DNA of 63,598 nt, the filler included, from Nemertoderma westbladi (taxonomy: Eukaryota > Animalia > Xenacoelomorpha): NCBI GenBank assembly GCA_032718475.1. It is 3 parts of 3 records of this genome, joined end to end, with 100 filler letters (N's around TTAATTAATTAA, not from the genome) between each part and the next. Parts side by side here need not be neighbours in the genome. Positions count along the whole stretch, not along the records: positions 1 to 30,683 come from JAUCBJ010005436.1; 2 more parts are not named here. The stretch is one strand, 5' to 3'. Shown here in pieces: positions 1,135-33,700 of this stretch (position 1 is its first letter; each line of letters starts with the position of its first letter). The position numbers and the translations under genes were made by a program. Under the pieces are notes generated by a model. The model saw only the letters and a program-made list of their open reading frames with translations, was not told where the DNA came from and searched no databases.

Positions 1135-1242
1135 GCGGCTGTCGAGCAGCAGCAACATCCTAGCCAAGAGCCTAGTTCTCAGCGGCCCGATAGCTCCAGT
1201 AGTTCGGATACTGTAGAGCTGACACCCGAACGCGGAGCGAAG

Positions 1243-5520: not shown

Positions 5521-5571
5521 TGTCCGGAAACTATGGAAGGCAAGATACTCTTCCTACGACCACTTCCCTAA

Positions 5572-6128
5572 TGTTAGCTTATTCAATCCCGCTAACACCC
5601 CATAAAGTTAAGCCGATAAGCAATATTGGGGGCCACGAGGTTGGGTAATCACCAATTCGTGTCACCCCAATAAAATGGGAAGGAGAAACACAATGAGGGT
5701 CAGGGGCCAAACCCCTAACCCAGAGAGAACAGGTGGAGTGAACGGGAACACTCCAAAGGGCGCCAACAAGGGTATCAACCAATCAGACGGGGGAAAGGCA
5801 TCGATTAGGTAGAGTAACAAGGCCAACCGTGCAATATAGCCAGTTGGCAGTAATCATATCAGTTCAGTTATCTCAGTATCATATTGGTGCTAGTTAGGTT
5901 AGTTAGTTTAGCTAGGGAAGGACCGGGACTTTAATTACCGTATCCCGCCTTCCGTGTGCGACAACATTATTCATATACCTATATCTATATACCCTATATC
6001 TATATATCCGTACAACCGATTATTATATACGACGAACGACAGGAACTCCTTTTACCTTTCATACACACGGCGGGGACGCGTGAACTAAACAACCGGATAA
6101 ACCGGGATCCTTCCTGGATCCCGTCACA
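5572..6128 (+). repeat. 5' LTR
   Basis: TGTTAGCTT...CCGTCACA, direct repeat of 21682-22238 with about 7 substitutions counted by eye. Confidence 0.95.
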
Positions 6129-6266
6129 GTAATTAAACCAGTGCTGCCGCCCTAGCTAAACTCAGTAATTAAAACCTAGCAGCTACCTGGCAGTAATTCC
6201 TCAGCGCTGCCTCAGAGCTGCCGCCCTAGCTAGCTAAACCACCAGCCACCAATCGAACCAACCGAG

Positions 6267-7987
6267 ATGAGTCTGTCGGGAGAGACAACGCCGACGCGGA
6301 CCCCAGACAAAGAATTAACGATCCGCGAGGCCGCAACCAGGCGGTACAGGCCCACAACGCCGGACCCATCGATAATGGGTCACCCGGCAGTTCAGGATGA
6401 GGGGGGCCGCCTGGAACCCGAGGTCGAGCCGAGAGGAGGAGAGAGCGGGATGGAGGGAGAAGGAGACGAGTCGACACGGGACGTGGGTCGAGGTACTGAT
6501 GTCGCCGGCCAGCCACAGGCCGAGGGCGAGGAGCGGCCCACCGAAACGGCGACGGTGGAGCCGACGGTACGACGCCGGACCCGAAGAGACGGAGGAGATG
6601 TCGGTACCGATGTCGCCGGCCAGCCACAGGCCGAGGGCGACGAGCAGCCCACCGAAACGGCGACGGTGGGGCCGACGGTACGACGCCGGACCCGGAGAGA
6701 CGGAAGAGAGGTCGGCGACGAGGACGTCGGGGTTTCTGATCGACTTCGACGGGCCGACAACGCGACCCAGAAACTGCTAAAGGAGGCCAAAGAGGGGGCG
6801 AAGATAGATAAGGTGAGACTGAGGAGACGACTAGGTGAGTCGAATAAACACTTTAAATATCTAATGCGCTTCGGGCAAAGAGAACTGGCCAAGGAGAGAG
6901 CGAGAGGGGTTGCCGAGGAACTGTATGACTTGTGGCAGTGTAGGGGTATGGAACCTAGCGTAGTGTACGTAGGGCCATACTTAGTCGATGCCCGGGGACT
7001 AAAATTAGTGGGTTGGGGGAGACCTGAGGAGGGCGAATCCGAGGTTAACCCCGAGGATTCGGCCTCGTCGGTCGGAGGAAGTTCCGGGAGGCGGGGGAAA
7101 GTCAGTAGGACTGGGAGGCGGAGGGAATCCGTTACGACCGATAAGTCTGATACATCCTCCGCGAAAGAAAGACGGGTGAGAGAGATAAATGCCGCGTACC
7201 GTCTCGATTTAATAGAGCAAGGTCAAAGGGAAGTAGGTAAACGGTTAGAGGAGGGGAGAGTGCTGCTAGAGAGGGAAATGGCGTTGATTAAGGAAACCGG
7301 AGAGAGGGCCGAAAGGGCCGCGAGAAGCCTTAGGGAGTGTGAGGAAGTAGGGAGGAAGGAACAAGAAGAACGCGAGGCGAGAGAGAAAAATGAGCGCAAA
7401 GAACGTGAGGCGGAACGTAGGGAACGTGAGGCGGAACGTAGGGAACGTGAGGCGAAAGAGGAAAACGAGTGCAAAGAGCGCGAGGAGAGAGAGGAAAACG
7501 AGCGTAGAGAGCGTGAGGTGAGACGAAGGAAGGGGGCTAGAAGAGAGTTGGAATTGGCCGAATGGGACGCACGAGAGTGTAAGGAGAGAATGGCAAGGAA
7601 GGAGTGTGAGCAAAAGGAACTAGAGAAACGTCAAGGTGAGCTTACAGGATACAAAGCTATACACACACGCGAACGGGAATTGGCGCGAATAGGGGTGTCT
7701 GAGAGTGGGGCTAGCTCGAGTATTCTCGAGGAGCCAGGGGCCGTGGATATATTTATTGATACCCCACTTACAGGGACCGCACGACAGACCCAAGACTGGT
7801 GTCACCATACGGGCGGGGGGGTAATAATAATGCTATAATAGACGTCGTTAATATTAATAGTACCGTATGGGATAACTCTAACCAAACCTTTATTGCAGCA
7901 AATAATACTTTACCTAGTAGCAGTAATTTAAATTTAAATACAGATAATAATTTCAATTTGAACGTGCAAAATATTCCGAGTGGTAAT
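6267..7987 (+). CDS. gag: Gag N-terminal region part 1 (Glu/Arg-rich coiled coil, then Asn-rich tract)
   Basis: ATG at 6267; internal ~114-bp duplication (DVAGQPQAEG..RRRTRRDG twice); EREARE repeats. Frame changes at a G run (~7815-7821) into the Asn-rich 7799 frame, which is cut by the CRE insertion. Confidence 0.6.
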
Positions 7988-7988
7988 T

Positions 7989-10712
7989 GAAGAACATTTT
8001 ATTTCGTCTTTATTAGTAAATATTTGGTAAATATTATTCTGTAATAATGTTAGATATAATTACGTATAATAACAAACAATAATACATAAATGTACAAACA
8101 ATGTAGGGTGAGTAAAGTAATTGAGCGCACTTTAATTTTGTTATAGTAATAGTTTTTACTTCCCCTTTCCCCCTTTACCCCTCTCTTAACCACCCCAGAT
8201 CCCGGTCCCATCACCGAAACCGAGACCTCGCCAAGACCTTCGACCCCCACGGAGGCAGAGCGAACATGACCGAAGTAGTGCAAACTGCAGTCTCCGCCGG
8301 ACGGCACCCAAGACACAGGCGTAGCCGCGGTTTCGCATAGACTCTCGCCTTGCAACCAGCGCTTCTGTGAGGTGTGCGATGAGGATTTTGGCCTCGGCAC
8401 ACCAGACACCATCTGTGGTTCCCACCAGTGGTGTGAAGGCCATCCGTCGATCTTCACACACTGGCTGGTAGTGTGCCTTCTTTTGGCGCGCCCTCTGCTC
8501 GAGGAGGGATTCTGTTGACCGGTTGGTTTGAATGTAGGAGGTAGCGTCAGGGTTAATAACCGCAATGTCGAACGACGCTATATGCTGATTGGACCAAACC
8601 CCCCGACTGACCAGGTCTGCACGGACCCCACCCACCACTCGACCCTCCGCGTCCAGATGACCACGAGAGAGAGTAACCTCACGCTCCACACTGGATGCAC
8701 CGAAGGCTGAAGCCAGTAGTTCACCATAGACCTCCCTCAGCTCGTCATGGCGCTTGATGACGAGGCCTCCTGACTTGCAGCTGAGGGCGTGCGTAGTAGT
8801 GAAGTGGCCGCCGCAGCCCTCGCATTTGGTGGGGAGACCTGGTGGAACCAAACCATAGCGAAGGGCGAGACTATCTCGGAACTCATCGGGGCTTAAGTCT
8901 GTGTGGTCCACGGCCGATGGTTGGGCTGTGAGCCAGCCGCCAGTGTTATTCGCAATGGCCCGTTCTACAGTACGACGGCGACTGGGTGGGAGGGAGGCCA
9001 CTGAATCCTCCATTTTGGACTTGTAGTCCGCGTCCTGGGCACTGCGGCTCGCCTTTAGGGTGCTTCCCAACTTGGCATTGTGGTCTGCCACGAGAAGTGG
9101 TTCACCCGAACAGATTGACTCGGCGACTACCGATGTCCCGATTGTGGAGGTAGCCCGTGCGGATGTCTTACGAGTGAGTGGGTCCCTCAGTCCTATCCCT
9201 CCATGGCGTGTGGGAAGGAGGACGATTTCCTCATCAACCGTATCCAGAGGGAAGCCAAACAGTGCTGGGATGAATTTCTTGACCAGTGCTGTGCGGATCG
9301 GGGCGATAGCAACATCCTCGGTTGGTGACACCCGGAGGAGGTAGTCCCACTCTGCCTGTATGCAGCGTGAGACGCCTGTGTGGGCAGCCTGGGGATATTC
9401 TTTGGCAATTTCGGCGATGGTTTCGATGCTGCTGACCCAGCCAGCCACCTTCTCAGCTAAGAATTTGGCGTGACCAACCTCCGAACCAATGTATCCGCCA
9501 AGGAAGCGGTGCCCAGACACGATCTGGATGCCGTGTGGACCAAACAATGCTTGGGCCTGATTCTCGAGCCCCGGCTTGACTATGAGAAAGCTCTTCTCTG
9601 GCTCAGGGTAGTAGCCTATGCTGGGGCCTAGTCGCTGCAGCACGTGCCACCAGTTCCTGATCCCATGGAGTGTACCAGCTGATGCAGAGTCGTCTGCGTA
9701 CCAGCTTTGTCGTTGTGATGGTGTTCGCTGTATCATTGATGGAGCGTTCATTGGTGGTGGCTCGATGGGAGGTAATGGTTGTGATAGTGATCGAGTCTCG
9801 GTGTATCTCCTTGAATGCGGTGACTGTGGGACACTGGTGCTCCTGGTAGGCGATGGTAAGGGTAGAGTGGTGGACAAACTCGGTTGAGGTGATAACTTGG
9901 GTGAAGAAGGGTCTGCTTGAATATTGCGTAATGCCCGAATCATTGGGAGGGTGGTGCACCCATAAACCAGCATTGCGAGGGGATCACCTTGTGTCATCCC
10001 TTCGGCACTCCATATGGGCGACTTTGAGCCAGACATGTAGAGGGCAGCGTGACCGTTATAAGCATTATACACAAAACGTGATGCTCGATGCCAGTAAATG
10101 CGACAGTTCCACAATGCTGCTGGGCGACTCAAGCTGTTGAATGCGTTGCTCGCGTCGACAAGCAGCATTGCCTGGGTCTCCTCCTCGGTGAAAATAGATG
10201 TCATGGCGTGTATGGCGCCCTCGAGTCCGGCTTTGACGCCCGTGCACAGTTGGTCCGCACCACACTCTGCGATTAGATCTGACTTCGTCGCCATCGCCAG
10301 GCAGTTTGCCAGCAGGCGGTATAAAACCTCCCCAATGCCGATAGGTCGGACACCCGGCTTCTTGTCAAGGCCGATCAACCGACAGGCCCTCAGTGCCCGG
10401 ATCTGGCCCCATGGTACCATGGTGTTAGAGAGGCGTCGTGCGAGACTGGCGACAGCTTCACGGAGGCGTGCACTGTGGGCTTCATAGCGTGTGAGTAGAG
10501 CACTCCAGAGTTCTGCGTCGCCACCGACTGGACCAGCGCTGCCTCGCAGAGTCTTGGTGACTTTCAGGACTATCTGTCCTGATATATCGACAGCCTCTAA
10601 TGGTGGGAGAACAGGGCACGGTTCCAGTGATTCAGGTCTTATAGGAGCCTGTAAGGGGTGCTTCCTTTGAAGGATGTCCCGGACAGTTACTCTATCTGGT
10701 TCACCTCCTGCC
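7989..10712 (-). mobile_element. 5'-truncated CRE-clade (RT + restriction-like endonuclease) non-LTR retrotransposon inserted antisense in gag
   Basis: ATT duplicated at 7986-7988 and 10713-10715; AATAAA motifs on the minus strand near 7997-8014; removing the insert restores GNLDLEN in frame. Confidence 0.85.
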
Positions 10713-10714
10713 AT
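8186..10714 (-). CDS. Reverse transcriptase + CCHC + RLE (PD-D/ExK) endonuclease, CRE-like
   Basis: GVRPIGIGE, LLVDASNAFNSL, QGDPLAM and WYADD RT motifs; CEGC..HALSC knuckle; RHD..RADL..FDIAV..KKAHY..FTPLV RLE motifs; uninterrupted 842 aa. Confidence 0.92.
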   Translation of the reverse strand: MAGGEPDRVTVRDILQRKHPLQAPIRPESLEPCPVLPPLEAVDISGQIVLKVTKTLRGSAGPVGGDAELWSALLTRYEAHSARLREAVASLARRLSNTMVPWGQIRALRACRLIGLDKKPGVRPIGIGEVLYRLLANCLAMATKSDLIAECGADQLCTGVKAGLEGAIHAMTSIFTEEETQAMLLVDASNAFNSLSRPAALWNCRIYWHRASRFVYNAYNGHAALYMSGSKSPIWSAEGMTQGDPLAMLVYGCTTLPMIRALRNIQADPSSPKLSPQPSLSTTLPLPSPTRSTSVPQSPHSRRYTETRSLSQPLPPIEPPPMNAPSMIQRTPSQRQSWYADDSASAGTLHGIRNWWHVLQRLGPSIGYYPEPEKSFLIVKPGLENQAQALFGPHGIQIVSGHRFLGGYIGSEVGHAKFLAEKVAGWVSSIETIAEIAKEYPQAAHTGVSRCIQAEWDYLLRVSPTEDVAIAPIRTALVKKFIPALFGFPLDTVDEEIVLLPTRHGGIGLRDPLTRKTSARATSTIGTSVVAESICSGEPLLVADHNAKLGSTLKASRSAQDADYKSKMEDSVASLPPSRRRTVERAIANNTGGWLTAQPSAVDHTDLSPDEFRDSLALRYGLVPPGLPTKCEGCGGHFTTTHALSCKSGGLVIKRHDELREVYGELLASAFGASSVEREVTLSRGHLDAEGRVVGGVRADLVSRGVWSNQHIASFDIAVINPDATSYIQTNRSTESLLEQRARQKKAHYQPVCEDRRMAFTPLVGTTDGVWCAEAKILIAHLTEALVARRESMRNRGYACVLGAVRRRLQFALLRSCSLCLRGGRRSWRGLGFGDGTGIWGG

Positions 10715-12177
10715 TTAGATTTGGAGAATAATAATAATTCAAATAATTTAAATAATGATCCAAGCCCGAATTTACAAAATAATTCAAATGATTTTGTTTC
10801 GAACGAACAAATTAATTCCGTTTCCGATATGGGTGCTATTAACGTAAACACGTCGGGCGTGTATGGCCAGGCAGATGGGGGCCTGGTAGGCCGTATAATT
10901 GGTAGGCCGGAAGTGGCGGGATTGAGCCAACCCAGAGAGGGCCTGGTAGGCCGCGTAGTTGGTAGGCAGGGGCCGACTGTGTTGGGTGGACCCAGTGAGG
11001 GCCTGGTAGGCCACGTAGTTGATGGGCGGGGAGTGGCTGGGTCGGGTAGACCCAGCGAGGGCCTGGTAGGCCACGTAGTTGGTAGGCAGGGAGTAGAGGG
11101 CCTGGTAGGCCACGCAATAGCAGAGGGAGAGGCGGGGGTGAATAGACCCGACCGCGGTAGGGTTGATGTGTCGACTAGAGAGGGATATAGTAGCAGGGTG
11201 AGAGATAGCGAAGTTAGATGTGGCGAGTGGGGGGGGGGGGGGGCTACAGGGGCCCCACAACAGCGAGTTAGTGGTGAAAGGGGGGGGGGGGGGCAGAGAG
11301 TGTCCCACAGCCGTCAGCGGATAATGCGCGGGCCAAAATAGGTAAACCGCAACACCCGGCGACGGAGAGTAATAGGGGGATTGCGAGTATCCCCAGCGGC
11401 GTGCGACCGAGCAGAGAGAGACAGGTTGACGTCGTGAGAGGGCGGACGAAGCGTCGAGCCCGATCAGAAGAGGGAAGAAGAACGGTGGGGTTTAACCGGG
11501 AGGTCGACGAGAGATCTCACGAGCGGGAACACTCCACTGAAAGGAGAAGAAGAGAAGACAGTAATATAAGTATCGCCGCGAATGAGAGAAGAGCAAGGAC
11601 GGATAGCGAGCCGTCGGTAGTCGAGATGAGAACGGAGAGTCAGTGGGGTCGGACTCCGGGAGATTGCCATCGCCCTGGAGAGATGCGACCCGGCGAGGCG
11701 CACTACGCGCCGATGGAGGGGTACGCGATGTACCGGTACGAAGACGAGAACAGTAGAAGGGGGGGTCGAAGAGAAACTTTCCGACGGAATATAGCTACCG
11801 ATCGAGAGTACGGTAGCCACGAGGAGGATTACTCGAGAGGAATAAACTTCGATCCCGAGCGAGGCATGCAGACTGTAGGACACACCTTAGGCCTTACTGC
11901 ACATACCATAGGCCATACTGAGAGAGGCAATGTAGGCGATAGGATAGTGCGGACAACGGGATTAAACCCGGAAGTCGCGGAATGCATACCGGCGAATAGG
12001 CCAGAAGCTGATAGGCCTATACCGGTACCAGTACAGCAGTATGACTACAGCATGCAGGGACATAACATATACCCAGGGGAGGGGGGAATTATTGCGGATA
12101 GGTGTATGGGCCCCAACATATTAACATCAACCCCAGTACCAAACATACCGGTGGGGGGGGGGGGGGGGACAGGGTGA
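10715..12177 (+). pseudogene. gag: Gag N-terminal region part 2 (Asn-rich, ~60-bp GLVGxVVGR repeats, Arg/Glu-rich)
   Basis: Continues the Asn-rich tract in frame; frames break near long G runs (~11229, ~11280, ~12152). Confidence 0.55.
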
Positions 12178-12235
12178 CATTCCCCCATCACAATATCAAC
12201 AATACACCCCAATAGGAGCAAGAACAACGAGACCC

Positions 12236-15200
12236 TTGGATGAAAATAGGTCGTGCGACACAGAAATATGGAGGGGGCCGCTACCCCCTATGACATATCC
12301 AAGTCAAAGGAAAGGTGGAAATAGGACAGACGGACCGCACCAGACAGGAGAAACTATACAACATCCATCGAACCTGTTGGAAGCACAGGCGATGGGGATG
12401 GCCACATTGATCGATGCGTTGAAAACGAGGATCGAGTTACCACCCGTGGAACCATTCAAATTCGATGGAAGTAGGCCGGAAGAATATCTACAGTTTCGGC
12501 GCATGTATAGTAACGAAATACTAACAAAGAACTTGACGCAGGCAGAGTGCCTAAAGTATCTGCAAGTATACACGGGAGGCCCAGCATACGATATCGTGAG
12601 GCAATATCAAGGAATAGAGGGCGGCTTCACGACAGCATGGCGGGCTCTGGACAGGGAATATGGGCACCCGGCCAAGATCATAAGGCAGACGCTGAGAGGC
12701 ATAACATCGGGTGGCCTACAGGATAATCCCGTTAGCATTAAGACGTTCGCTAACAAAGTCGAAAAGGCGCTAATCGTGCTGAAGACGCTAGACGCGCCAT
12801 ACGAGCTCAACGTGTCCAATAACATCACCACGATAGCGCAGGCACTACCGAACTGGCTGCGCAACAAGTGGAGGAAAATTGCCTTCTCCACTCGAGACAA
12901 GAAGGGTGCGGAACCGGGTCTAGAAGAAATGTCAAGCTTCTTAAACTACGAGGCTGTACTAATAACTGACCCAGTCTATAGCGAAGATAGCCTGGGAAAG
13001 GGACCGAAGACGGATTACCATAGACCGAAACCAGAGCACAATACATCAAACGCATTACCGAGGCTCAGGCAATCATTGCCATATGCAGCGACGCAGGGGA
13101 CTACGAGTCCACAGCTAGCCGAAGACAAGACCACACCATGGAACGGACAGGGGAACAATAACAACACGAATAAATATAACCCCAGTACGTCCAGTAGGCC
13201 GAATGCAAACAATAAGAATAGTAGGGACTTTGGTACAAACGCAGCTGCGATACGCAATGCGCTGTATAAGGAGGGCTACGACCCAAAGAGCAAATGCCAG
13301 CTACACGCAAATGCGCTTCATCAAACCATGAACTGCAGGTACTGGCAGGCGCTACCTAGGCAAGATCAGATAGATTATGCGTTGAGCAATAAAATCTGCT
13401 CGCGGTGTGTGATGAGTGGACATAGAGCTAGGGAATGCAAGGAGAAGCCGGTAAAGTTCGGTCAAAGGAGAGGCCAAACGATGGCAACGAGCACAGTAGG
13501 GGCGAAGAAGAGAGGAACAGTGCTACTTGGAGTAGTACCCGTGCGAGTGATTGGGGAAGGCAATCGATCAGTAACAACACTAATGCTGGTTGACAGTGGA
13601 GCTGCCTTCACATTAGTCGAGGAATGGGTGGCCGAAGAGATAGGATTAAGAACGAGGCCAAGCAGAATGGCGGTAACAACCATCTCTAGCAAAGATGAGA
13701 TCCTGGAGATGAGAACAGGACGGTGCGCAATTGCAGCGGTGGCACCGGGGTGCGACTACGGGGCAACCATCGACCCCATCCAAGTGATAGAGTCAATTAA
13801 TATCAATGCCAGGAGGCCAACCAACATCGAGGTCGAGGAATATAAATTCCTGGACGACATTGACTTCTCAATCCCAAGTGTGGACGTTAGGAAGGTATCC
13901 ATCATAGTGGGAATAGACTGCCCAACGGCCCACGAAAGAATGAAAACGGTCTTCGGCAAAGACAAGCAGTGTGACCCGGTGGCGATATTAACACCATTTT
14001 GGTGGACGCTGAGTGGCCCAATCAAGAGCAAGATACCATTTAGGATGTCGGAGACATCAGGATGCATGTTTGCGGGAACAATGCAGGAAATGGGTGATGA
14101 GGGAGCAGAGGAGCAGCTTAAAAGACTGCTCAGGCAAGATTTTGAGGGACTGAAAGAAACCGGGGTCGGGACCTCGGTAGAAGACAAGCAGGCTTTACAA
14201 AGCGTGGAGGAATCGATGACATGCGATGAGGGGCGGTATACTATAGGAATGGTATGGAAACTACCGAAGATACCGCTGCCCGATAATAGAGGGATGGTAC
14301 TCACGAGACTCCGCAAGCTGAAACAAACACTAAAACGGAGCCCCGAGAAGAATGAGTACATCCACAGAACGATTAAGAAGTACGTCGAGAAAGGATGGGC
14401 CGTGGAGTTACCGGTCGACGAACCGAACACGGACAGGACATATTACCTGCCACTCCACGTGGCTTTGGACCCAAAGAAAGGTAAACTGCAGATGGTAGTT
14501 GACGCATCGGCAAAGACCAACGGGAAATGCCTAAACGACTATCTGTTAGAAGGTCCAAACATATACAACTCGGGCATAGAGGTCCTACTTAGATTTAGAA
14601 ATGGGAAACACGCCATCACGTGTGACATAGAAGGCATGTTCAACCAAGTCCGTGTAACAGAGGAAGATAGCGACAGTCATCGCTTCTTATGGTATAACGG
14701 CGAGGAAGAACCGTCGATAATACCGGCATATAAGATGGTAGTACAAAACATGGGGGCAAAGTCGTCTTCATTTACGACGACTATGGCAGTGAGAGACACA
14801 GTGAAGGGGAAGGAAGATAGGTACAGCAGTAGGGCCGTCGATATGATTCGACGCGGCTTCTACATAGACGACGGAATGGAGTCTGGAAATACGGTTAAGG
14901 AGATACTGGACACGGGGCGCGAGGTTCGCGACATCCTAAAAAGATCCGGCTTTAACCTGACCAAATTCCAATCCAGTTTGGAAGAATTCATCAAGGCAAT
15001 AGAGGACAAGAGGCCAGAATCGACCATGGATAATCCCACAACAGCCAAAGGGCAGGACATGGCGAACAAGAGAACAGAATCTCAACAGAAGGCATTGGGA
15101 ATCGTGTGGAACAGAGAGACAGACGAACTGAAGTATCAGCTGAGCCAGGAGGGTGCAGACATCCACACGAAGAGGGGCTATGTATCGTATATAGCAAGGA

Positions 15201-15472
15201 TATACGATCCCCTAGGCCTAGCATCCCCATTATTAGTCACGGGGAAACAGATACTCAAGAGAGTATACAAATTGAAGGATGAGTGGGACATAGAGGTACC
15301 AGAGGAAATCAAGAAACAGTGGAGTAAGTGGACAGGAGACTTGGAGAAGATGGGAACATACAATATGCCACGAGTGTATTTCCCGGATGGGAACATGACG
15401 AATCTGGACCTACACATGTTCTCCGATGCGTCGTTGGAGGCGTACGGAGCGGCACTCTATTTAGTACAATGA
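12236..15472 (+). CDS. gag-pol: BEL/Pao gag core - zinc knuckle - protease - reverse transcriptase - RNase H start
   Basis: PFKFDG..CLKYL gag motif; CSRCVMSGHRAREC; LVDSGAAFT protease; YYLPLH, DIEGMFNQV and FYIDD RT motifs; IYDPLG and HMFSDAS..AYGA RNase H motifs. Confidence 0.93.
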   Translation: MDENRSCDTEIWRGPLPPMTYPSQRKGGNRTDGPHQTGETIQHPSNLLEAQAMGMATLIDALKTRIELPPVEPFKFDGSRPEEYLQFRRMYSNEILTKNLTQAECLKYLQVYTGGPAYDIVRQYQGIEGGFTTAWRALDREYGHPAKIIRQTLRGITSGGLQDNPVSIKTFANKVEKALIVLKTLDAPYELNVSNNITTIAQALPNWLRNKWRKIAFSTRDKKGAEPGLEEMSSFLNYEAVLITDPVYSEDSLGKGPKTDYHRPKPEHNTSNALPRLRQSLPYAATQGTTSPQLAEDKTTPWNGQGNNNNTNKYNPSTSSRPNANNKNSRDFGTNAAAIRNALYKEGYDPKSKCQLHANALHQTMNCRYWQALPRQDQIDYALSNKICSRCVMSGHRARECKEKPVKFGQRRGQTMATSTVGAKKRGTVLLGVVPVRVIGEGNRSVTTLMLVDSGAAFTLVEEWVAEEIGLRTRPSRMAVTTISSKDEILEMRTGRCAIAAVAPGCDYGATIDPIQVIESININARRPTNIEVEEYKFLDDIDFSIPSVDVRKVSIIVGIDCPTAHERMKTVFGKDKQCDPVAILTPFWWTLSGPIKSKIPFRMSETSGCMFAGTMQEMGDEGAEEQLKRLLRQDFEGLKETGVGTSVEDKQALQSVEESMTCDEGRYTIGMVWKLPKIPLPDNRGMVLTRLRKLKQTLKRSPEKNEYIHRTIKKYVEKGWAVELPVDEPNTDRTYYLPLHVALDPKKGKLQMVVDASAKTNGKCLNDYLLEGPNIYNSGIEVLLRFRNGKHAITCDIEGMFNQVRVTEEDSDSHRFLWYNGEEEPSIIPAYKMVVQNMGAKSSSFTTTMAVRDTVKGKEDRYSSRAVDMIRRGFYIDDGMESGNTVKEILDTGREVRDILKRSGFNLTKFQSSLEEFIKAIEDKRPESTMDNPTTAKGQDMANKRTESQQKALGIVWNRETDELKYQLSQEGADIHTKRGYVSYIARIYDPLGLASPLLVTGKQILKRVYKLKDEWDIEVPEEIKKQWSKWTGDLEKMGTYNMPRVYFPDGNMTNLDLHMFSDASLEAYGAALYLVQ

Positions 15473-17494
15473 GAGGGGGCTCATAAACCCAGACTAGCCT
15501 TTAGCAAAGCAAAGTCAACGCTGCCAGATTTAGCATCAGTTCCCAAGTTAGAATTGACAGCTGCGAGACTAGGAGTTAGAGCCACAGCCTACCTAGTGGA
15601 CACTATTCCCAATATAGTGGAGACACACTACTGGACGGACTCCATGGTAGTGCTTGGTTGGCTACATAACGAAAGGACGAGATACCCGATATTTGTCGCA
15701 AACAGAGTGGACGAAATAAGGGCGACCACAGAACTGGAAAGGTGGCACTACTGCCCAACAGACGAGAACCCAGCGGACTTGTTGTCGAGGGGCGTGGTAC
15801 GCCACACTTTCTTGAAGAAGGAAGTATTGTGGCAACATGGGCCACAATTTCTGAGCGATAAGGAGGCCTGGCCACCGATGAGAAAGGTGGATCCGGGCTC
15901 AGAAGTAGTGTCAGAGGGAGAAGAGGGAGATTCAGAGGGAGAAGAGATATACTCCCAGATGGTGAGGGAGATTAGGGACGTGCAACCAAGACAAGAACTG
16001 TGCGATAACCCGACAGATAAACTCCTCAGCTACAGTTCTAGTTGGTATAAGACCAAGAAACTAGTGGCGTACTGGAGAGCCTTTGGGAATTTCCTCGCGG
16101 GAGTCAGCAAGGACAAGAAGATCAAGATATACATAGATCTGGAAGGAGCGGCCAAGGCAGTCATCCGCTATGAACAACGGAAGAACTATGGCGACGAGGT
16201 GGAACGCGTCGGTAACCAACAACACCTTCGACGGGACAGCGAGCTGATCGCGCTGTCGCCACAACTTAATGACGACGGGATTCTAGTAATGAATTCCAGG
16301 GTGGGATACAACAACAGCATAATCGTACCACCGAAACCCATCATCATTCCAACAGGAGCGCCAATAGTTCACCAGATTATCTGGGACTCCCACAAGTCGA
16401 TATTGCACGGGGGCACCAACAGAACTCTCACGGAGATAAGGAGGACCTTTTGGGTCAAACAGTTGAGGAAGAAGGTAAAAGCGGTAGTGGGGCAGTGCCA
16501 GACCTGCCGACGAGCGAAGAAGGAGCAAGCCATACAAGATATGGCGCCACTACCAGCGAGCAGAGTAAGACAGCACGACGCGCCTTTTACGCATTGCGGT
16601 GTGGACATGTTCGGGCCGATAAAGATCAAGGTGATGCGGCACATGGAGAAACGCTACGGTATCATCTTCGTATGTAACAACACGCGGGCGGTAGGGATAG
16701 AACTCGCCCAAGACGCTACCGCATCAGCATTCATTAATGCCTTAGAAAGGTTCAGAGACCGCAAAGGTGGGACGATCGCAGTGATATACAGCGACAACGG
16801 CACCAACTTTGTGGGTGCAGAGAATGAGATGGCAGAGGCCTTGGACATCTTGGAAGGGGAGGAAGTCAGGGCGGCCATGAGACGACGACAAGTAAAATGG
16901 GAGAAAAGGACGCCGTATGCACCACATACACTAGGATGCGTCGAGAGACTTGTGGGCAGTTCAAAGCATCTAATGACGAAGCTAATGAACACCCACATGG
17001 TCACTGAGGACGTCTTACGGACAGTGCTTGTGAAGTGCGAGGGGATCATTAATAGCAGACCGCTATGATATGATGACCCTGAGTCACTAGACGTGCTGAC
17101 GCCTAGCCATTTTCTGATGGAAAGGCCAGCGACCATCGATATGCGGGGTGTAGACCCAGATGACATACACTCCCGCCAGAGTTGGAAAGTCGCTAAAGCA
17201 ATAAGCGCAGAGTATTGGAGGAGGTGGGTAGAATAATACTTACCCACACTCCATAAAAGAGGCAAGTGGAGGAAGCCGAATAGGGAGTTAAGAGTAGGAG
17301 ATCTCGTAATCGTTACGGATGATACTATCATCAACAACCAGTGGAGGTTGGCGAGAGTTGTAGGCACTTACTCCGATGAGGACGGAAGAGTCCGATCGGT
17401 AGAAGTGCGGATAGGTGGTAAGATAGGTGCGAAGGACAGAAAAACCTACAGGAGAGCTGTAGGGAAATGCTGTCTGCTAGAAGGGGCACCTTAG
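15473..17494 (+). pseudogene. pol: RNase H - integrase - C-terminal (DUF5641-like) part of pol, with a frameshift and stops
   Basis: PKLEL, WTDS and NPADLLSRG; HHCC zinc finger (HKSILH..CQTC); DDE triad GVDMFGP / SDNGTNF / GCVERL; in-frame stops at 17066 and ~17234; ends KCCLLEGAP-TAG at 17494. Confidence 0.9.
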
Positions 17495-17629: not shown

Positions 17630-18110
17630 GTACGCAGTTAGTAGGCAGAAGTTGGTTAAGAGGTACGTAATACCTAGAGTCAGTTAGTTAGGAGGTACGT
17701 AGTACCGTCAGTTAGTTAGTTAGTTAGGAGGTACCTAGTACCGTTAGTTAGAGAGTTAGAGGGTACGTAGTACCGCTAGTTACTTAGACGGTTAGAGGGT
17801 ACGTAGTACCGCTAGTTAGTTAGAGAGTTAGAGGGTACGCAGTACCGCTAGTTAGTTAGAGAGTTAGAGGGTACGTAGTACCGCTAGTTAGTTAGAGAGT
17901 TAGAGGGTACGTAGTACCGCTAGTTGGTTAGAGAGTTAGAAGGTACGTAGTACCGCTAGTTAGTTAGAGAGTTAGAAGGTACGTAGTACCGCTAGTTAGT
18001 TAGAGAGTTAGAGGGTACGTAGTACCGCTAGTTAGTTAGAGAGTTAGAGGGTACGTAGTACCGCTAGTTAGTTAGAGAGTTAGAGGGTACGTAGTACCGT
18101 TAGTTAGAGA
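17630..18110 (+). repeat. 36-bp internal tandem repeat (GAGAGTTAGAGGGTACGTAGTACCGCTAGTTAGTTA)
   Basis: About 10 near-perfect units from ~17750 plus degenerate 5' units; each contains the palindrome GGTAC-GTA-GTACC. Confidence 0.92.
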
Positions 18111-18588
18111 GAGAGAGTAAGAGGTAGAAGGGTATATAGGATATAGATATTAGTTAGCAGTTAGTAGCGAGAGGGGGGCATATGAGTACAGCTGGGTAAA
18201 TCGTGTGGCCACACGACGCATACTGCTGTACTGCACAGGCCCACAGAGTAGGCCAGAATGTGGATTAGAGAATAGAATAATCCATAGGCAATAGTGAGTA
18301 GTAGGACAGTAGAATTAAAACTAAAATAAATAGAATAGGGCTGAAAGTTACAAATTGTGGCAACACTAGGAAAGTTATTCTGGAACATAATAAAAGTAAC
18401 GGACAGAAATCGAAATTAGGGTGTATTTATTAGCTTCAAAATTAATTAGTAATAATTTAGGCTAAAAGGGCGCAGTTAAGTAAGAAATAGGCCATTATCG
18501 GACCGTACAGAACATCTTAGATACATCACTCATCTGTATTGCGCCTTGGTAAGGCACCACCTTACAGGTGAGCGAGTGAGTGTTCGGA

Positions 18589-19757
18589 ATGGCGAGCAAA
18601 TTGATCAGAAAGAGAAAGGCGGAGTCAGGAGGAATGGAGATACTGGTGGATTTCACCGAGAGGCACCCGGAAGAGAAGACGAGAGGATACTACGAGAGGT
18701 TGGAAAGGGGTCACGCGGCACGAGCGCTGCAGGATCATTTCCGGGAGATGCACGAACAGCGGCTGGTCGGGACCTACGGGACGCTGTTGCTGGACAACGC
18801 GATCTTCCAACACTTCCACTACGTGGTGAAAGGGGACGAGGCGAAGTTTGGGATTCCGAAGTACCCGAGGGAATCACCGAGAAAGGACTGGAAGAGATTC
18901 ATAGAGTCCATCAACAGGGGAGGATATATGATCCTAGACGACGAGGGAACCGTGGAAGACGAGGCGGGTTCGAGACGAGGATCGGCGGGGTCGGCCAGGA
19001 CCATACTCCTACATTTGGCCGCGCCAAATGGGGACATCTTCCTATTCGATCTAGGAACGTATGGGAAGAAGGACGGGCCGAAATTGAACCGGTTGCCGAA
19101 AGCGGTACAAGTCTTGGTAAGAGAGAAGTCGACGACGAAAGTGGGATCGGCGATTCGCGAGGATGCGGAGAGGATCATCGGTCCGGACGCCACCAACCTC
19201 CTGGATATGCAGAAGGTCTTTATGGCTATGACGGCACCGGATGGGTTGGGGGTAGTCGAAAACACAGGCCAATGCGGGGCGGTGGCAATGGGCCAATTAT
19301 TGGCCCATGGATAATGATAAGTTTGCTTAACTTATTCATGACCGTGGTTATCGAGAGGGAACCAGCAGCATTTCTGTTATCGGGATCACCCCTAAGCTAT
19401 AGGAGAGCCTTTAAAGTGGCCTTCAACGGTCTGGTAGACCACCCGGGGCTGAAGGGCGAGTCGGTGTACTACAACAGCCGACATCTGGTAGACGGGGAGA
19501 CAGATACGCCGTATCAGAGATGGGAGCAGCTAGAGACGGATAGACGAGAAGTAAAGCGACTGGAAGAAGTCGCTAGACGGGAGAGGATAGAAGCAGAGGA
19601 GAGGGAAGAGGAGGCCAGGACGCAGAGTTACGGCTTCGAGGAACAGGCAGGCCTAGACGAACTTCATTGGACTTCGTCAGCGAGTTCGGGGGAGTCTCTA
19701 GGGCGAGAACTGGGATGTACGGTGGGATCACCGAAACAGTCGACGTCGGGGTTGTGA
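18589..19757 (+). CDS. DEDD-family 3'-5' exonuclease domain (WRN/EXD1/Mut-7/RNase D-like), frameshifted at ~19310
   Basis: ExoI ILDDEG; LLHLAAPNGDIFLFDL; LPKAVQVLV..KVGSAIREDA (ExoII); LLDMQKVF. ExoII is followed by a break and no ExoIII YxxxD is visible. Reading continues in another frame (WIMISLL..). Confidence 0.72.
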
Positions 19758-19760
19758 TAG

Positions 19761-20972
19761 ATGCCCATACCAGTGGGCGCCGAAGGCGACCAACCGCCAA
19801 GGAAGTTAAGGGAACTAGAGGGATGGAGAGCTACGGGCGAGAGCCAAGGCCGGAAGGGACATAGTGGATTCATCGGGATACCGGGGTTGAAGCCACTGCC
19901 AGAGGAGGAGGAGGACGACGACGAGTTCGGAGAAATGCCGCCCATCGAGAGGATAGGCCACTCGGACACGGACTGGGTTGGCGGTAGGGTGGTGACGGCC
20001 AGTGGGGCGAGGGCCTTCTGGAACAGATCCGGCAAGCGGACCTGGGTGCACGAGGAGCCGGCGATGGATTTCGCGGGGAGCACTATCAGGTTGGGCGAGC
20101 AACCGGGGACGGCACCACGGATAGTATTCGGGGAGACGATGCCCGAGAGGGGCGGAGAGATCGACGTAGACAGAGACACCAACGTGGAGAAGTTTGCCTA
20201 CCAGCGACTCCACAGACCGCAGAGATCGCTTGGGATGAAGGACGACGTGGGGCGGGAGACATTGGTACTCGGCTGCGACTACTGTGGCAGGCAGACCCAC
20301 CAGGAAAGGAGCTGCTTGTACCGGTTCCAAAAGGGAACCTTTTGTCTCTACTGCCGAGAGCCGAGCCACAGGATGGGGGCGTGTCCACGGTTGCATAACC
20401 GATGTCCAAAGTGCAACTTTCGGGGACACTTCGGACGCCAGTGCGACTGGATGGACGATGAGGAGAAGTTCAGGAGAATCGAGGAGTGGGCCGACATCGG
20501 GGCTATGACGCGCCAGCGCATGAAGGCCCAGGAGTTCAAGTGGGGTTTCTTCCTTATCAATCAGGAGGCTCACATGGAAATCATAAAGCGGAGGCTACCG
20601 TTTACCTATCAAGAGGTAGCAACGGCGGCGTCGTATGCCGGAGTGATGAACACACAAAGATATTTGGACAGGTGGACGCCACAGAACCGAGGGGAGTTTA
20701 GGGATTTCTTGGCGGAGCACGTGCCGCAAGCAATGAAAATGATCCTATGGGACGCCACCAGAGGGAGACAACAGGGCCACTCTGAGGGGCCACCGGTGAA
20801 GCGATATCGGGCACTAATAACACCAGCGCCCAAGGAGCCAACAACCGGAATCAGCAGGGAGGTGGCGGCAAAAGTCCGAAAGCAGAAAGCGGACCCCAGA
20901 GGAGCGGTGGTAACCAAGAAACGACCCAGGGAAGAGGACGCCAGGGGGAACTACCCCCAGAGGAACAGATAG
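19761..20972 (+). CDS. Triple CCHC zinc-knuckle protein (probable C-terminal half of the exonuclease ORF)
   Basis: CDYCGRQTHQERSC, CLYCREPSHRMGAC and CPKCNFRGHFGRQC (three CX2CX4HX4C); acidic EEEEDDDE linker; basic C-terminus (KKRPR). Confidence 0.75.
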   Translation: MPIPVGAEGDQPPRKLRELEGWRATGESQGRKGHSGFIGIPGLKPLPEEEEDDDEFGEMPPIERIGHSDTDWVGGRVVTASGARAFWNRSGKRTWVHEEPAMDFAGSTIRLGEQPGTAPRIVFGETMPERGGEIDVDRDTNVEKFAYQRLHRPQRSLGMKDDVGRETLVLGCDYCGRQTHQERSCLYRFQKGTFCLYCREPSHRMGACPRLHNRCPKCNFRGHFGRQCDWMDDEEKFRRIEEWADIGAMTRQRMKAQEFKWGFFLINQEAHMEIIKRRLPFTYQEVATAASYAGVMNTQRYLDRWTPQNRGEFRDFLAEHVPQAMKMILWDATRGRQQGHSEGPPVKRYRALITPAPKEPTTGISREVAAKVRKQKADPRGAVVTKKRPREEDARGNYPQRNR

Positions 20973-21644
20973 GTTCCTAGGGCCGGGGGGAGAGGAACTG
21001 AGACTTGAATGTGGTACGCCTGGAAGGCGCCGCGTGGGACGTACGAACTATTAAGTATAAATCAAGCTGATGCAAATAATTAAATAAGTGCAATTATATG
21101 TACATACGTAGTGATCAGTAGTTTAGCAATAAAAATATACGTTTGGAGTAAGTACTATAGTCATACAACCTTTCTCAATTAGCTACTGGGACTGGGGGGA
21201 TAACTGACTATGGCACTATGGACGAGACACCAGACGATTTCACACTTCTTGAGTGCGACGGCACAAGAGGGGGGGAGATTCGTCAGAAGGGATGAGATAG
21301 TCGAAGTGGGGTTGAGGGACGGAGTAATGGTGCGAAGTGCGGAGAGGCTGCAGACGCAATTCTAGTGTGGGGGGGAGAATAAGAGGCTGAGTGAGGGATG
21401 AGGAGGTCCGAGGGTTTGAGAGAGTTAGGGTGAGAGTGGAGAAGAGATAGGGCGAAAGTGTTGGGGAAACAAAAGTCGCATGAGAGATGAGCGTGATCGG
21501 CCCGACATGGGACGCCAGGCATATAGGGTAGCGTTATCATACCCATAGGGAGCGGCCTGGAAAGCCGGCTCCGAGAGAAAAGAATTCCACCCCTCACCCG
21601 ATACTAGATCGGGATCCAGCGGGATTGTAGCGCACTTAAGGTGG

Positions 21645-21681
21645 ATGCTATCTTCTCACCGGGAAGATAGCATGGGGGGAG
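21645..21681 (+). promoter_or_regulatory. 11-bp hairpin and polypurine tract abutting the 3' LTR
   Basis: ATGCTATCTTC-N7-GAAGATAGCAT followed by GGGGGGAG then TGT. Confidence 0.8.
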
Positions 21682-22238
21682 TGTTAGCTTATTCAATCCC
21701 GCTAACACCCCATAAAGTTAAGCCGATAAGCATTATTGGGGGCCACGAGGTTGGGTAATCACCAACTCGTGTCACCCCAATAAAATGGGAAGGAGAAACA
21801 CAATGAGGGTCAGGGGCCAAACCCCTAACCCAGAGAGAACAGGTGGAGTGAACGGCAACACTCCAAAGGGCGCCAACAAGGGTATCAACCAATCAGAGGG
21901 GGGAAAGGCATCGATTAGGTAGAGTAACAAGGCCAACCGTGCAATATAGCCAGTTGGCAGTAATCATATCAGTTCAGTTATCTCAGTATCATATTGGTGC
22001 TAGTTAGGTTAGTTAGTATAGCTAGGGAAGGACCGGGACTTTAATTACCGTATCCCGCCTTCCGTGTGCGACAACATTATTCATATACCTATATCTATAT
22101 ACCCTATATCTATATATCCGTACAACCGATTATTATATACGACGAATGACAGGAACTCCTTTTACCTTTCATACACACGGCGGGGACGCGTGAACTAAAC
22201 AACCGGATAAACCGAGATCCTTCCTGGATCCCGTCACA
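21682..22238 (+). repeat. 3' LTR
   Basis: Direct repeat of 5572-6128, followed by TSD CCTAA. Confidence 0.95.
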
Positions 22239-22293
22239 CCTAATCCGACAAATATCTAGGGACTCCATAACATAACAACATACGGAGGGGGTG

Positions 22294-30683: not shown

Positions 30684-30783
30684 NNNNNNNNNNNNNNNNN
30701 NNNNNNNNNNNNNNNNNNNNNNNNNNNTTAATTAATTAANNNNNNNNNNNNNNNNNNNNNNNNNNNNNNNNNNNNNNNNNNNN
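30684..30783. other. Artificial contig spacer
   Basis: N44-TTAATTAATTAA-N44 (stops in all frames). Confidence 0.95.
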
Positions 30784-33700
30784 AGTTAGAAGTTGTGGGC
30801 ACTGAGAGCGCCACATAGTAAGAGAGTAGAGGGTATGGTATATAGGTATACCATAGTAGCAGTAGTAGGGTACATAGTACCGTTGGAGTCAGAAGTTGTG
30901 GGCAGCGAGAGCGCCACGTAGTAAGAGAGTAGAGGGTATGGTATATAGGTATACCATAGTAGCAGTAGTAGGGTACATAGTACCATAAGAGTTAGAAGTT
31001 GTGGGCAGCGAGAGCGCCACGTAGTAAGAGAGTAGAGGGTATGGTATATAGGTATACCATAGTAGCAGTAGTAGGGTACATAGTACCATAAGAGTTAGAA
31101 GTTGTGGGCACTGAGGGCGCCACGTAGTAAGAGAGTAGAGGGTATGGTATATAGGTATACCATAGTAGCAGTAGTAGGGTACATAGTACCGTAAGAGTTA
31201 GAAATTGTGGGCATTGAGAGCGCCACGTAGTAAGAGAGTAGAGGGTATGGTATATAGGTATACCATAGTAGCAGTAGTAGGGTACATAGTACCGTTGGAG
31301 TCAGAAGTTGTGGGCATTGAGAGCGCCACGTAGTAAGAGAGTAGAGGGTATGGTATATAGGTATACCATAGGAATAGTAGTAGGATACGTAGTACCATAA
31401 GAGTTAGAAGTTGTGGGCACTGAGAGCGCCACATAGTAAGAGAGTAGAGGGTATGGTATATAGGTATACCATAGTAGCAGTAGTAGGGTACATAGTACCG
31501 TTGGAGTCAGAAGTTGTGGGCATTGAGAGCGCCACGTAGTAAGAGAGTAGAGGGTATGGTATATAGGTATACCATAGTAGCAGTAGTAGGGTACATAGTA
31601 CCATAAGAGTTAGAAGTTGTGGGCAGCGAGAGCGCCACATAGTAAGAGAGTAGAGGGTATGGTATATAGGTATACCATAGTAGCAGTAGTAGGGTACATA
31701 GTACCATAAGAGTTAGAAGTTGTGGGCAGCGAGAGCGCCACGTAGTAAGAGAGTAGAGGGTATGGTATATAGGTATACCATAGTAGCAGTAGTAGGGTAC
31801 ATAGTACCGTTGGAGTCAGAAGTTGTGGGCATTGAGAGCGCCACGTAGTAAGAGAGTAGAGGGTATGGTATATAGGTATACCATAGTAGCAGTAGTAGGG
31901 TACATAGTACCGTTGGAGTCAGAAGTTGTTGGCAGCGAGAGCGCCACATAGTAAGAGAGTAGAGGGTATGGTATATAGGTATACCATAGTAGCAGTAGTA
32001 GGGTACATAGTACCATAAGAGTTAGAAGTTGTGGGCATTGAGAGCGCCACATAGTAAGAGAGTAGAGGGTATGGTATATAGGTATACCATAGTAGCAGTA
32101 GTAGGGTACATAGTACCATAAGAGTTAGAAGTTGTGGGCAGCGAGAGCGCCACGTAGTAAGAGAGTAGAGGGTATGGTATATAGGTATACCATAGTAGCA
32201 GTAGTAGGGTACATAGTACCATAAGAGTTAGAAGTTGTGGGCAGCGAGAGCGCCACATAGTAAGAGAGTAGAGGGTATGGTATATAGGTATACCATAGTA
32301 GCAGTAGTAGGGTACATAGTACCATAAGATTTAGAAGTTGTGGGCATTGAGAGCGCCACGTAGTAAGAGAGTAGAGGGTATGGTATATAGGTATACCATA
32401 GTAGCAGTAGTAGGGTACATAGTACCATAAGAGTTAGAAGTTGTGGGCATTGAGAGCGCCACGTAGTAAGAGAGTAGAGGGTATGGTATATAGGTATACC
32501 ATAGTAGCAGTAGTAGGGTACATAGTACCGTTGGAGTCAGAAGTTGTGGGCAGCGAGAGCGCCACGTAGTAAGAGAGTAGAGGGTATGGTATATAGGTAT
32601 ACCATAGTAGCAGTAGTAGGGTACATAGTACCATAAGAGTTAGAAGTTGTGGGCAGCGAGAGCGCCACGTAGTAAGAGAGTAGAGGGTATGGTATATAGG
32701 TATACCATAGTAGCAGTAGTAGGGTACATAGTACCGTTGGAGTCAGAAGTTGTGGGCAGCGAGAGCGCCACGTAGTAAGAGAGTAGAGGGTATGGTATAT
32801 AGGTATACCATAGTAGCAGTAGTAGGGTACATAGTACCATAAGAGTTAGAAGTTGTGGGCACTGAGAGCGCCACGTAGTAAGAGAGTAGAGGGTATGGTA
32901 TATAGGTATACCATAGTAGCAGTAGTAGGGTACATAGTACCGTAAGAGTTAGAAATTGTGGGCATTGAGAGCGCCACGTAGTAAGAGAGTAGAGGGTATG
33001 GTATATAGGTATACCATAGTAGCAGTAGTAGGGTACATAGTACCGTTGGAGTTAGAAGTTGTGGGCACTGAGAGCGCCACATAGTAAGAGAGTAGAGGGT
33101 ATGGTATATAGGTATACCATAGTAGCAGTAGTAGGGTACATAGTACTATAAGAGTTAGAAGTTGTGGGCAGCGAGAGCGCCACATAGTAAGAGAGTAGAG
33201 GGTATGGTATATAGGTATACCATAGTAGCAGTAGTAGGGTACATAGTACCATAAGAGTTAGAAGTTGTGGGCAGCGAGAGCGCCACGTAGTAAGAGAGTA
33301 GAGGGTATGGTATATAGGTATACCATAGTAGCAGTAGTAGGGTACATAGTACCGTTGGAGTCAGAAGTTGTGGGCATTGAGAGCGCCACGTAGTAAGAGA
33401 GTAGAGGGTATGGTATATAGGTATACCATAGTAGCAGTAGTAGGGTACATAGTACCGTTGGAGTCAGAAGTTGTGGGCAGCGAGAGCGCCACATAGTAAG
33501 AGAGTAGAGGGTATGGTATATAGGTATACCATAGTAGCAGTAGTAGGGTACATAGTACCATAAGAGTTAGAAGTTGTGGGCATTGAGAGCGCCACATAGT
33601 AAGAGAGTAGAGGGTATGGTATATAGGTATACCATAGTAGCAGTAGTAGGGTACATAGTACCATAAGAGTTAGAAGTTGTGGGCATTGAGAGCGCCACAT

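Follow-up and report, generated by a model that had tools for sequence, protein, structure and literature searches.

We describe here a cassette of coding sequence carried by a retrotransposon of Nemertoderma westbladi (Eukaryota; Animalia; Xenacoelomorpha). The DNA analysed, referred to as the window, comprises 63,598 nucleotides, filler included, of the NCBI GenBank assembly GCA_032718475.1. It consists of three parts of three records joined end to end with 100 filler letters between each part and the next, and positions 1 to 30,683 come from JAUCBJ010005436.1. On the predicted domains of its pol region, the retrotransposon is a BEL/Pao element, since DUF1759 (5.2e-11), an aspartyl protease, RVT_1, Peptidase_A17 (1.4e-27), Integrase_H2C2 (8.4e-13) and rve follow one another in the order characteristic of this group. 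The cassette (18589–20972) is located between the pol stop codon (TAG, 17492–17494) and the polypurine tract (PPT), within both the long terminal repeats (LTRs) and the target-site duplication, and it very probably represents a selected exonuclease-like and zinc-knuckle cassette of this BEL/Pao family. An initial annotation, made from the sequence alone, had already placed the pol stop at 17494, a PPT at 21674 followed by the 3′ LTR, and the coding region inside the LTRs and target duplication of a BEL/Pao element; all of this holds, with the PPT GGGGGGAG at 21674–21681, the 3′ LTR at 21682–22238, two 557-bp LTRs differing by 7 mismatches, and CCTAA on both flanks. The parts of the cassette are as follows.

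18565..18567, + strand: possible splice acceptor CAG (weak), 21 nt 5′ of the first ATG
18589..19307, + strand: first part of open reading frame (ORF) 3a, an N-terminal extension and a DEDDy-like exonuclease core, starting with the ATG at 18589
19307..19308, no strand: copy-specific break with a frame change and a missing ExoIII region, located from contig ends and the family alignment
19308..19760, + strand: presumed tail of ORF3a, presumably joined to the first part although in another frame, ending TGA TAG (19755–19760)
19761..20972, + strand: ORF3b, 403 aa, with an acidic run, three knuckles and a basic tail

The candidate acceptor has 11 pyrimidines in 20 positions, a value equalled by three other sites, and an intron at the 19308 break is neither needed nor supported. 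The presumed tail of ORF3a includes a charged, likely helical stretch (19527–19619) and closes with two adjacent stop codons directly before the ATG of ORF3b (TGA-TAG-ATG, 19755–19763). At the density of in-frame stops found in pol (3 per 1790 codons), two adjacent stops produced by random decay are expected only about 0.002 times per 790 codons. Because this junction is improbable as decay and is directly followed by an ATG, it is more likely that the exonuclease and the knuckles are specified by two ORFs, the second expressed by reinitiation or a second splice, than by the single protein of about 790 aa initially proposed; a frameshift near the junction may be an alternative. The junction is known from this copy alone, as it is not among the 40 listed of the approximately 660 variable places considered below. 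The cassette is, by its predicted hydropathy, not an env gene: none of its three pieces has a transmembrane-like segment (maximum 19-residue hydropathy 1.07, 1.35 and 0.36). Both ORFs carry basic clusters (RKRK, 18607–18618; KKRPR, 20916), which we take to resemble nuclear localisation signals (NLS). No second copy of the cassette occurs within the window.

Sequence relationships of the two ORFs

The first piece, examined as a sequence of 241 aa, contains, in order, ILDDEG (18931–18948), HLAAPNGDIFLFDL (19012–19053), LPKAVQVL (19093–19116), KVGSAIRED (19138–19164) and LLDM (19198–19209), the WRN/EXD/RNase D-like motifs noted initially. In an unguided MAFFT alignment, the ExoI residues D117 (18937) and E119 (18943) and the ExoII residue D192 (19162) fall on three columns that do not vary across the 31 rows, and the K of KVG is likewise conserved. 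The piece stops where the family continues with its last motif segment, K..S.W..L...Q..YA..D, so that the ExoIII YxxxD is missing from this copy, its loss falling at the 19307/19308 break. The breakage into frames and the loss of ExoIII had both been suspected from the start.

For a targeted profile, 40 bacterial PF01612 regions were fetched and one (L102), which had no usable frame, was dropped. The pooled profile of the remaining 39 bacterial DEDDy exonucleases gives the piece 11.8 bits, a score that no shuffle out of 1000 attains (single-sequence E 5e-6), and ranks it first among the 165 six-frame segments of positions 1–30600 of the window, the runner-up reaching 0.5 bits. With hhalign the comparison gives E 5e-5 and a probability of 67%. 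A WRN-like subfamily profile gives 4.8 bits, equalled by 2 of 1000 shuffles. In the ESM Atlas, PF01612 clusters rank first (0.90, 0.89, 0.89; the third commonest in Rotifera) and all of the ten top named matches belong to one family or clan, results which we treat as leads only, a score of 0.9 being attained by 4–10 of every 100 shuffled proteins. A model built with the family alignment as a guide has a pLDDT of 72.5 and finds as its best PDB matches EXD2 (E 4e-4) and Trypanosoma brucei RNase D (E 2.5e-3, 24% identity), with Egalitarian, Rrp6, WRN, Nibbler, Exd1 and apicoplast polymerase exonucleases lower down, and giant-virus 3′-5′ exonucleases in addition. Since folding made use of the family alignment, these matches are circular and indicate compatibility only. 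A strand is predicted at the ExoI D-x-E in both the guided and the unguided models.

Several results weigh against this assignment. The NrnC, RNase D and PolA subfamily profiles are negative, leaving one of four that exceeds the 99th shuffle percentile. The single-sequence fold is uninformative (pLDDT 33), and the best match of a wide structure search with it (Z 3.7) is PAS-like noise. Among curated profiles (Pfam, including PF01612, NCBIfam and PHROGs) none matches the exonuclease piece, which lacks its last third. Of 3107 candidates at longer lengths from a protein homologue search none reached E<=0.01, and of 57 from a further search none reached E<=10; no relatives of the piece were found among viral and metagenome contigs, phages or PDB sequences. 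With ExoIII missing from the piece, catalytic competence is at most putative. The single match among 1.84 billion representatives, a protein of 2805 aa aligned in 14 short stretches, was set aside as repetitive. Two plasmid matches have E 5, and the one inspected lies, by eye, in an AraC-type regulator gene.

One alternative is that the motif likeness arose by chance in an orphan accessory protein which is not a DEDD nuclease. It draws on the lack of any Pfam, NCBIfam or PHROGs match, on the solitary repetitive protein among the 1.84 billion representatives, on the modest hhalign probability and on the Atlas scores attained by shuffles. Against it, the Atlas, the targeted hidden Markov model and the unguided alignment agree on the family and on the order and spacing of the three invariant residues, and the break sits just where ExoIII is expected; we regard it as quite improbable. 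With high confidence, the first piece is predicted to be of the DEDDy exonuclease type. A DEDD exonuclease had initially been claimed on its motifs; the claim now has a targeted profile and the ExoI and ExoII residues behind it, although the Pfam comparison proposed with it gives no curated family match. Identities to the cellular group are about 15–24%, and no donor subfamily is singled out.

ORF3b is simpler to describe. The three knuckles announced as CX2CX4HX4C are exact (20274–20315, 20343–20384, 20403–20444); among 20000 shuffles of ORF3b none yields three and one yields any. The acidic run (19902–19925) and the basic tail (20871–20930) are also where they had been described. In Pfam the knuckles reach only E 0.013, under the cut-off, and in the ESM Atlas ORF3b gives CCHC-clan leads only, all below 0.9. 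Of 26 candidates from a homologue search, not one attains E<=1. Retroviral nucleocapsids (best E 0.04) and the T. brucei RNase D structure 7c42 (E 0.1) are weak matches of the knuckles.

Copies of the family and the host element

Copies of the cassette were observed as short contigs of four DNA sequencing runs, representing at most three samples and at most three studies, the best of the runs possibly being the window's own source. The numbers of contigs matching 18150–21750 are 5548, 8308, 4844 and 99, with identities from 99+% to below 90%, and they cover 30, 30, 30 and 29 of the 30 bins into which this interval was divided. Diverged contigs bridge the spacer and the exonuclease (18483–18895), the ORF3a tail and the knuckle ORF (19674–20120), the knuckle ORF and the 3′ untranslated region (UTR; 20855–21057), and the 3′ UTR and the PPT (21535–21675); no contig in the four runs spans the cassette from the exonuclease to the LTR. 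Three X2 and four X3 contigs have loose ends just before 19308, and the match of one X5 contig begins at 19308. Other copies therefore differ just before this position, and the loss of ExoIII would be particular to this copy or its subfamily.

Among the approximately 660 variable places, 40 were listed, 31 of them coding: 19 segregate among copies and 12 are private to this copy. Fifteen of the 19 segregating coding sites are synonymous, where the substitution spectrum of the data predicts a fraction of 0.287 (binomial p 8e-6), whereas reading the same sites in the wrong frames gives 4 and 2 of 19. The excess is found in each ORF (10 of 13 and 5 of 6), while the private sites, 5 of 12 of which are synonymous, look neutral. 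The test uses 31 of approximately 660 places. These were selected by the tool, come in many cases from a single contig and share descent, so that they are not independent and the p-value is too small, a point which counts against the selected state we propose; the direction is nevertheless clear. Among the 12 indels listed, which leave aside 35 more, the sole coding one is of 3 nt. The relative synonymous codon usage (RSCU) of the cassette has a rank correlation of 0.73 with gag-pol, 0.02 with the nested element and −0.07 with the gag of the outer element (both described below), and its purine content is also like that of gag-pol. No direct repeat of more than 9 nt and no inverted repeat of more than 8 nt was detected between its flanks.

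Many diverged copies, the synonymous excess, a gag-pol-like codon usage and flanks without termini of their own together argue that the cassette is a long-resident, selected and family-wide accessory part of the element and not a nested insertion, as far as can be read from these contigs. The initial annotation had named three outcomes that would speak against its reading: no exonuclease profile or structure match, absence from other copies or a separate insertion, and neutral evolution. The targeted profile, though no Pfam profile, points away from the first, the thousands of diverged contigs and the flanks from the second, and the synonymous excess from the third.

The features of the host element are listed below.

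5567..5571, no strand: target-site duplication, left copy (CCTAA), from comparison of the flanks
5572..6128, + strand: 5′ LTR, 557 bp, TG..CA; 7 mismatches and 0 gaps relative to the 3′ LTR
6234..7838, + strand: open frame, taken from its position and codon use as the 5′ part of gag, split by the nested element
8186..10714, − strand: ORF of a nested non-LTR-like retroelement, outside the cassette, with RT-like motifs by eye
11278..17494, + strand: remainder of gag and pol (protease, reverse transcriptase (RT), RNase H, integrase), with a frame change near 12125–12177; Pfam domains
17686..18115, + strand: 36-bp unit repeated 12 times in tandem, separating pol from the cassette
21645..21673, + strand: perfect 11-bp hairpin adjoining the PPT, from self-complementarity
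21674..21681, + strand: PPT GGGGGGAG, directly 5′ of the 3′ LTR
21682..22238, + strand: 3′ LTR, 557 bp, TG..CA, the sole partner of the 5′ LTR in the window
22239..22243, no strand: target-site duplication, right copy (CCTAA), from comparison of the flanks

With a length of 557 bp, TG..CA ends and a target duplication, the LTRs agree with those of BEL/Pao elements (0.2–1.2 kb), and the PPT with the polypurine tract of about 10 nt found before their 3′ LTR. Belpaoviridae have LTRs of 0.2–1.2 kb and a size of 4.2–10 kb (PMC8742986), so that this element, at about 13 kb once the nested element is subtracted, lies above the family range. BEL/Pao gag proteins typically have a triple Cys-His box, exceptions being known (PMC554778, available in part); in the gag of this decayed copy two boxes are evident from 13295. 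A database search for loci related to pol found none. The copy itself is dead: ExoIII is lost, pol has three in-frame stops (15470, 17066, 17234) and gag is interrupted, and for these reasons it could not itself perform the mechanism proposed below.

Further observations were made in and around the element. The nested minus-strand ORF (842 aa, 8186–10714) shows by eye RT-like, C-terminal CCHC and restriction-like endonuclease-like motifs and matches no Pfam family. The gag region and the vicinity of the nested element contain in-frame tandem repeats (6492–6715, 7366–7523 and 10879–11094; units of 111, 33/21 and 60 bp), and the 36-bp array at 17686–18115 has the word GCTAGTTAG in common with the LTR near 5890. 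The element sits inside another BEL/Pao-like element (1030–5312) in which both a triple Cys-His box within gag and the protease motif LLDSG can be recognised by eye (3246–5312). Elsewhere in the window, 30784–41820 and 43233–54269 form an 11,037-bp inverted repeat, 100% identical, of a 103-bp satellite, which adjoins N runs (30684–30783) and is likely to be a read fold-back or assembly artefact, or else a very recent inverted duplication.

Leader and primer site

The start of the element differs from that of a retrotransposon primed by a transfer RNA (tRNA). An 18-nt tRNA-type primer binding site (PBS), for tRNA-Arg or tRNA-Gly, is absent, the first TGG occurring at 6188; priming by an internal tRNA fragment was not tested. 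In its place, the leader pairs with the LTR.

5906..5938, + strand: LTR segment complementary to the leader, a candidate self-primer, with blocks of 12 bp and 9 bp in one register
6129..6161, + strand: primer-site position, which pairs with LTR 5906–5938 and has no TGG start

No shuffle equals the pairing in alignment score (2000 shuffles) or in duplex energy (500 shuffles), and one of 1000 equals it in ungapped identity. It ranks second among 776 40-mers of the element, behind a TA-rich stretch at 18129. The region has a folding z of −4.4, and its minimum-energy structure includes the 12-bp block but leaves out that of 9 bp. We consider this pairing a candidate for self-priming. A self-encoded tRNA primer is unsupported, there being no tRNA gene and no Rfam match near threshold.

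Further partial copies of the LTR complement are present within the leader at 6165–6173 and 6224–6253. CA/GTAATT at 6129, 6165 and 6193 provides the only donor-like motifs in 5860–6260, the first exactly at the LTR end; a splice from this candidate donor would remove the primer site from a subgenomic RNA. The top-ranking of the 776 40-mers, the TA-rich stretch 18129–18150 that follows the tandem array, shows complementarity to LTR sequence near 5975–5995; it is of low complexity and is equalled by 1 of 100 spacer shuffles. TATA/Inr-like motifs near 5833 and 5859 suggest a tentative transcription start. The arrangement resembles that of the self-primed elements Tf1/sushi, Tcn1 and TAR in having no tRNA PBS and in the pairing of sequence adjacent to the 5′ LTR with the element's own LTR (PMC6317226, available in part). 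Unlike Tf1/sushi, it belongs to another superfamily and the pairing consists of two parts (12 + 9 bp), situated some 45–80 nt past the presumed transcription start rather than at it.

Possible roles of the cassette

The closest precedents are found in rotifers. Juno and Vesta are Ty3/gypsy-like elements. DEDDy ORF3s have been described in these two bdelloid LTR elements and in Athena/Terminons (PMC5408684; PMC5718144; PMC6431247, of which parts were available), and Rodriguez, Kenefick and Arkhipova (2017) suggested for them a role in 3′-end processing of element RNA (PMC5408684). As in Juno, Vesta and Athena, the present DEDDy-like ORF lies 3′ of pol in the env position and is without a transmembrane segment. 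It differs from the rotifer ORF3s (DEED) in its third acidic residue, D192; in its BEL/Pao host, a group that the available part of PMC5408684 does not discuss; in the three-CCHC ORF that follows it, no knuckle partner being described for rotifers in that part; and in the synonymous excess among copies, where the same part reports neutral intragenomic variation.

A second precedent is T. brucei RNase D (TbRND), in which the exonuclease is accompanied by four CCHC fingers binding RNA upstream of the cut, a combination its authors call very unusual (PMC7797062, available in part). In both systems tandem CCHC motifs come after a DEDD exonuclease of the RNase D group (PDB 7c42/7c45 for TbRND), and 7c45 matches the guided model. 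TbRND trims mitochondrial guide RNAs (gRNAs) with four fingers in one chain, whereas the three knuckles here lie about 350 codons away, probably in a separate ORF, and we make no claim of orthology. With EXD2, the WRN exonuclease, Nibbler (Mut-7), Exd1 and Egalitarian, all of PF01612, the piece shares the ExoI DxE, the ExoII D, the KVG...D motif and the predicted topology; it departs from this cellular group in its low identity (about 15–24%) and in an N-terminal extension of about 110 aa without a match. With the env-bearing Belpaoviridae Tas, Cer7/Cer13 and Atlas it has in common a BEL/Pao backbone in which further coding sequence lies between pol and the 3′ LTR (PMC8742986; PMC9094657 and PMC554778, available in part); unlike theirs, the cassette has no env features.

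The ICTV profile of Belpaoviridae lists gag, pol and env only (PMC8742986). The word exonuclease is absent from PMC8742986 and from the available parts of PMC3118150, PMC9094657, PMC554778 and PMC2774666, and PMC11662393 uses it only for LINE endonucleases. We found no description of a BEL/Pao exonuclease in the literature searched, outside which lie most subscription papers and supplements, so that absence from print is not established. An exonuclease-like domain may already be described for a nematode Cer element. The novelty that the initial annotation left to be checked is thus partial: an exonuclease ORF in the env position is already published for rotifer LTR elements, and a BEL/Pao case was not found in the literature searched. 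General background is given in PMC3601003 and PMC7968707, both available in part.

We tentatively favour a role in which the exonuclease and the knuckle protein act together on RNA of the element itself, trimming its 3′ ends. The cassette would probably consist of two genes, a likely DEDDy 3′-5′ exonuclease and a three-zinc-knuckle protein, replacing env and, by analogy with other ORF3s, expressed from a spliced subgenomic RNA. In unbroken copies the enzyme would be active, and the knuckles would hold RNA upstream of its 3′ end, in the way that Trypanosoma RNase D uses its four. The enzyme would act on 3′ ends of element RNA, possibly including the predicted self-primer. Trimming is favoured because of the enzyme class, the TbRND-like pairing with CCHC motifs, the selection, and a self-primer that would need a precise 3′ end. 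The most detailed form of this proposal starts from an endonucleolytic cut within the loop of about 190 nt between LTR 5938 and leader 6129; the resulting tail would be removed by the exonuclease as far as the duplex, providing a 3′-OH for minus-strand synthesis. A BEL/Pao lineage without a host tRNA primer would then encode a primer-maturation machine of its own, in which an RNase D-like exonuclease and a knuckle partner, arranged as in TbRND, trim the transcript to the LTR–leader duplex; this version is decidedly doubtful. Tf1-type self-priming requires no exonuclease, the cut being made by RNase H, and the NLS-like clusters of both ORFs fit a role in cytoplasmic particles poorly; both facts tell against trimming.

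The same basic clusters would suit a close rival, itself rather unlikely, in which the cassette counters silencing by binding and shortening or destroying host piRNAs or siRNAs, their precursors or antisense element transcripts, in the manner of the arenavirus NP exonuclease. The fold group includes Nibbler/Mut-7 and Exd1; the arenavirus ExoN works in immune suppression (PMC7968707, available in part); the family seems abundant, to judge from its contig numbers; and a link between DEDDy ORF3s and copy number is possible in rotifers, though inconsistent (PMC5408684, same part). The structural matches, however, do not single out Mut-7 or Exd1, above which EXD2 and TbRND rank, and a freely diffusing suppressor would help all elements and so be harder to keep under purifying selection. 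Egalitarian and Exd1, which are also among the matches of the guided model, suggest instead a catalytically idle RNA-binding adaptor. It would direct element RNA to particular sites, such as germ cells, or see to its packaging, and the knuckle protein would serve as an additional chaperone of nucleocapsid type. The weak resemblance of the knuckles to retroviral nucleocapsids and the two Cys-His boxes evident in the element's own gag, where three are typical, agree with this, but D117, E119 and D192 are all kept on invariant columns, and an idle adaptor appears improbable.

Action on DNA is also conceivable. A proofreader or complementary DNA (cDNA)-end polisher for the RT, acting as WRN and polymerase exonucleases do, might sustain a large genome. 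The WRN-like subprofile is the sole positive one, the structural matches include both WRN and exonucleases of apicoplast polymerases, the element of about 13 kb exceeds the family's 4.2–10 kb (PMC8742986), and nidovirus ExoN is tied to genome size (PMC7968707, available in part). The exonuclease is, however, not fused to the RT and is partnered with RNA-type knuckles, and the family is highly diverse, all of which makes such a role very improbable. A passenger without a role, whether captured from the host or nested as a separate insertion, is largely refuted: the cassette is broken in this copy and no contig covers the exonuclease through the LTR, but the synonymous excess, the codon usage and purine content shared with gag-pol, the flanks without repeats above the lengths given and the overlapping diverged contigs that link the spacer through to the PPT all speak for residence.

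The role of non-env ORF3 enzymes has been open since the DEDDy ORF3s of rotifers, where no selection signal was found. The present case extends such ORFs to the BEL/Pao superfamily and adds an RNA-binding knuckle partner, and the synonymous excess among copies implies that the cassette matters to the element. As the exonuclease is too diverged to be recognised by Pfam or among 1.84 billion representatives, cargo of this kind is probably under-annotated. The abundance of the family provides natural variation for dN/dS and small-RNA tests. If the cassette matures a self-primer or disarms piRNAs, it would constitute a new step in retrotransposon replication or in the conflict with the host, and were the primer-maturation machine to prove correct, it would be the first function assigned to a retrotransposon DEDDy ORF3.

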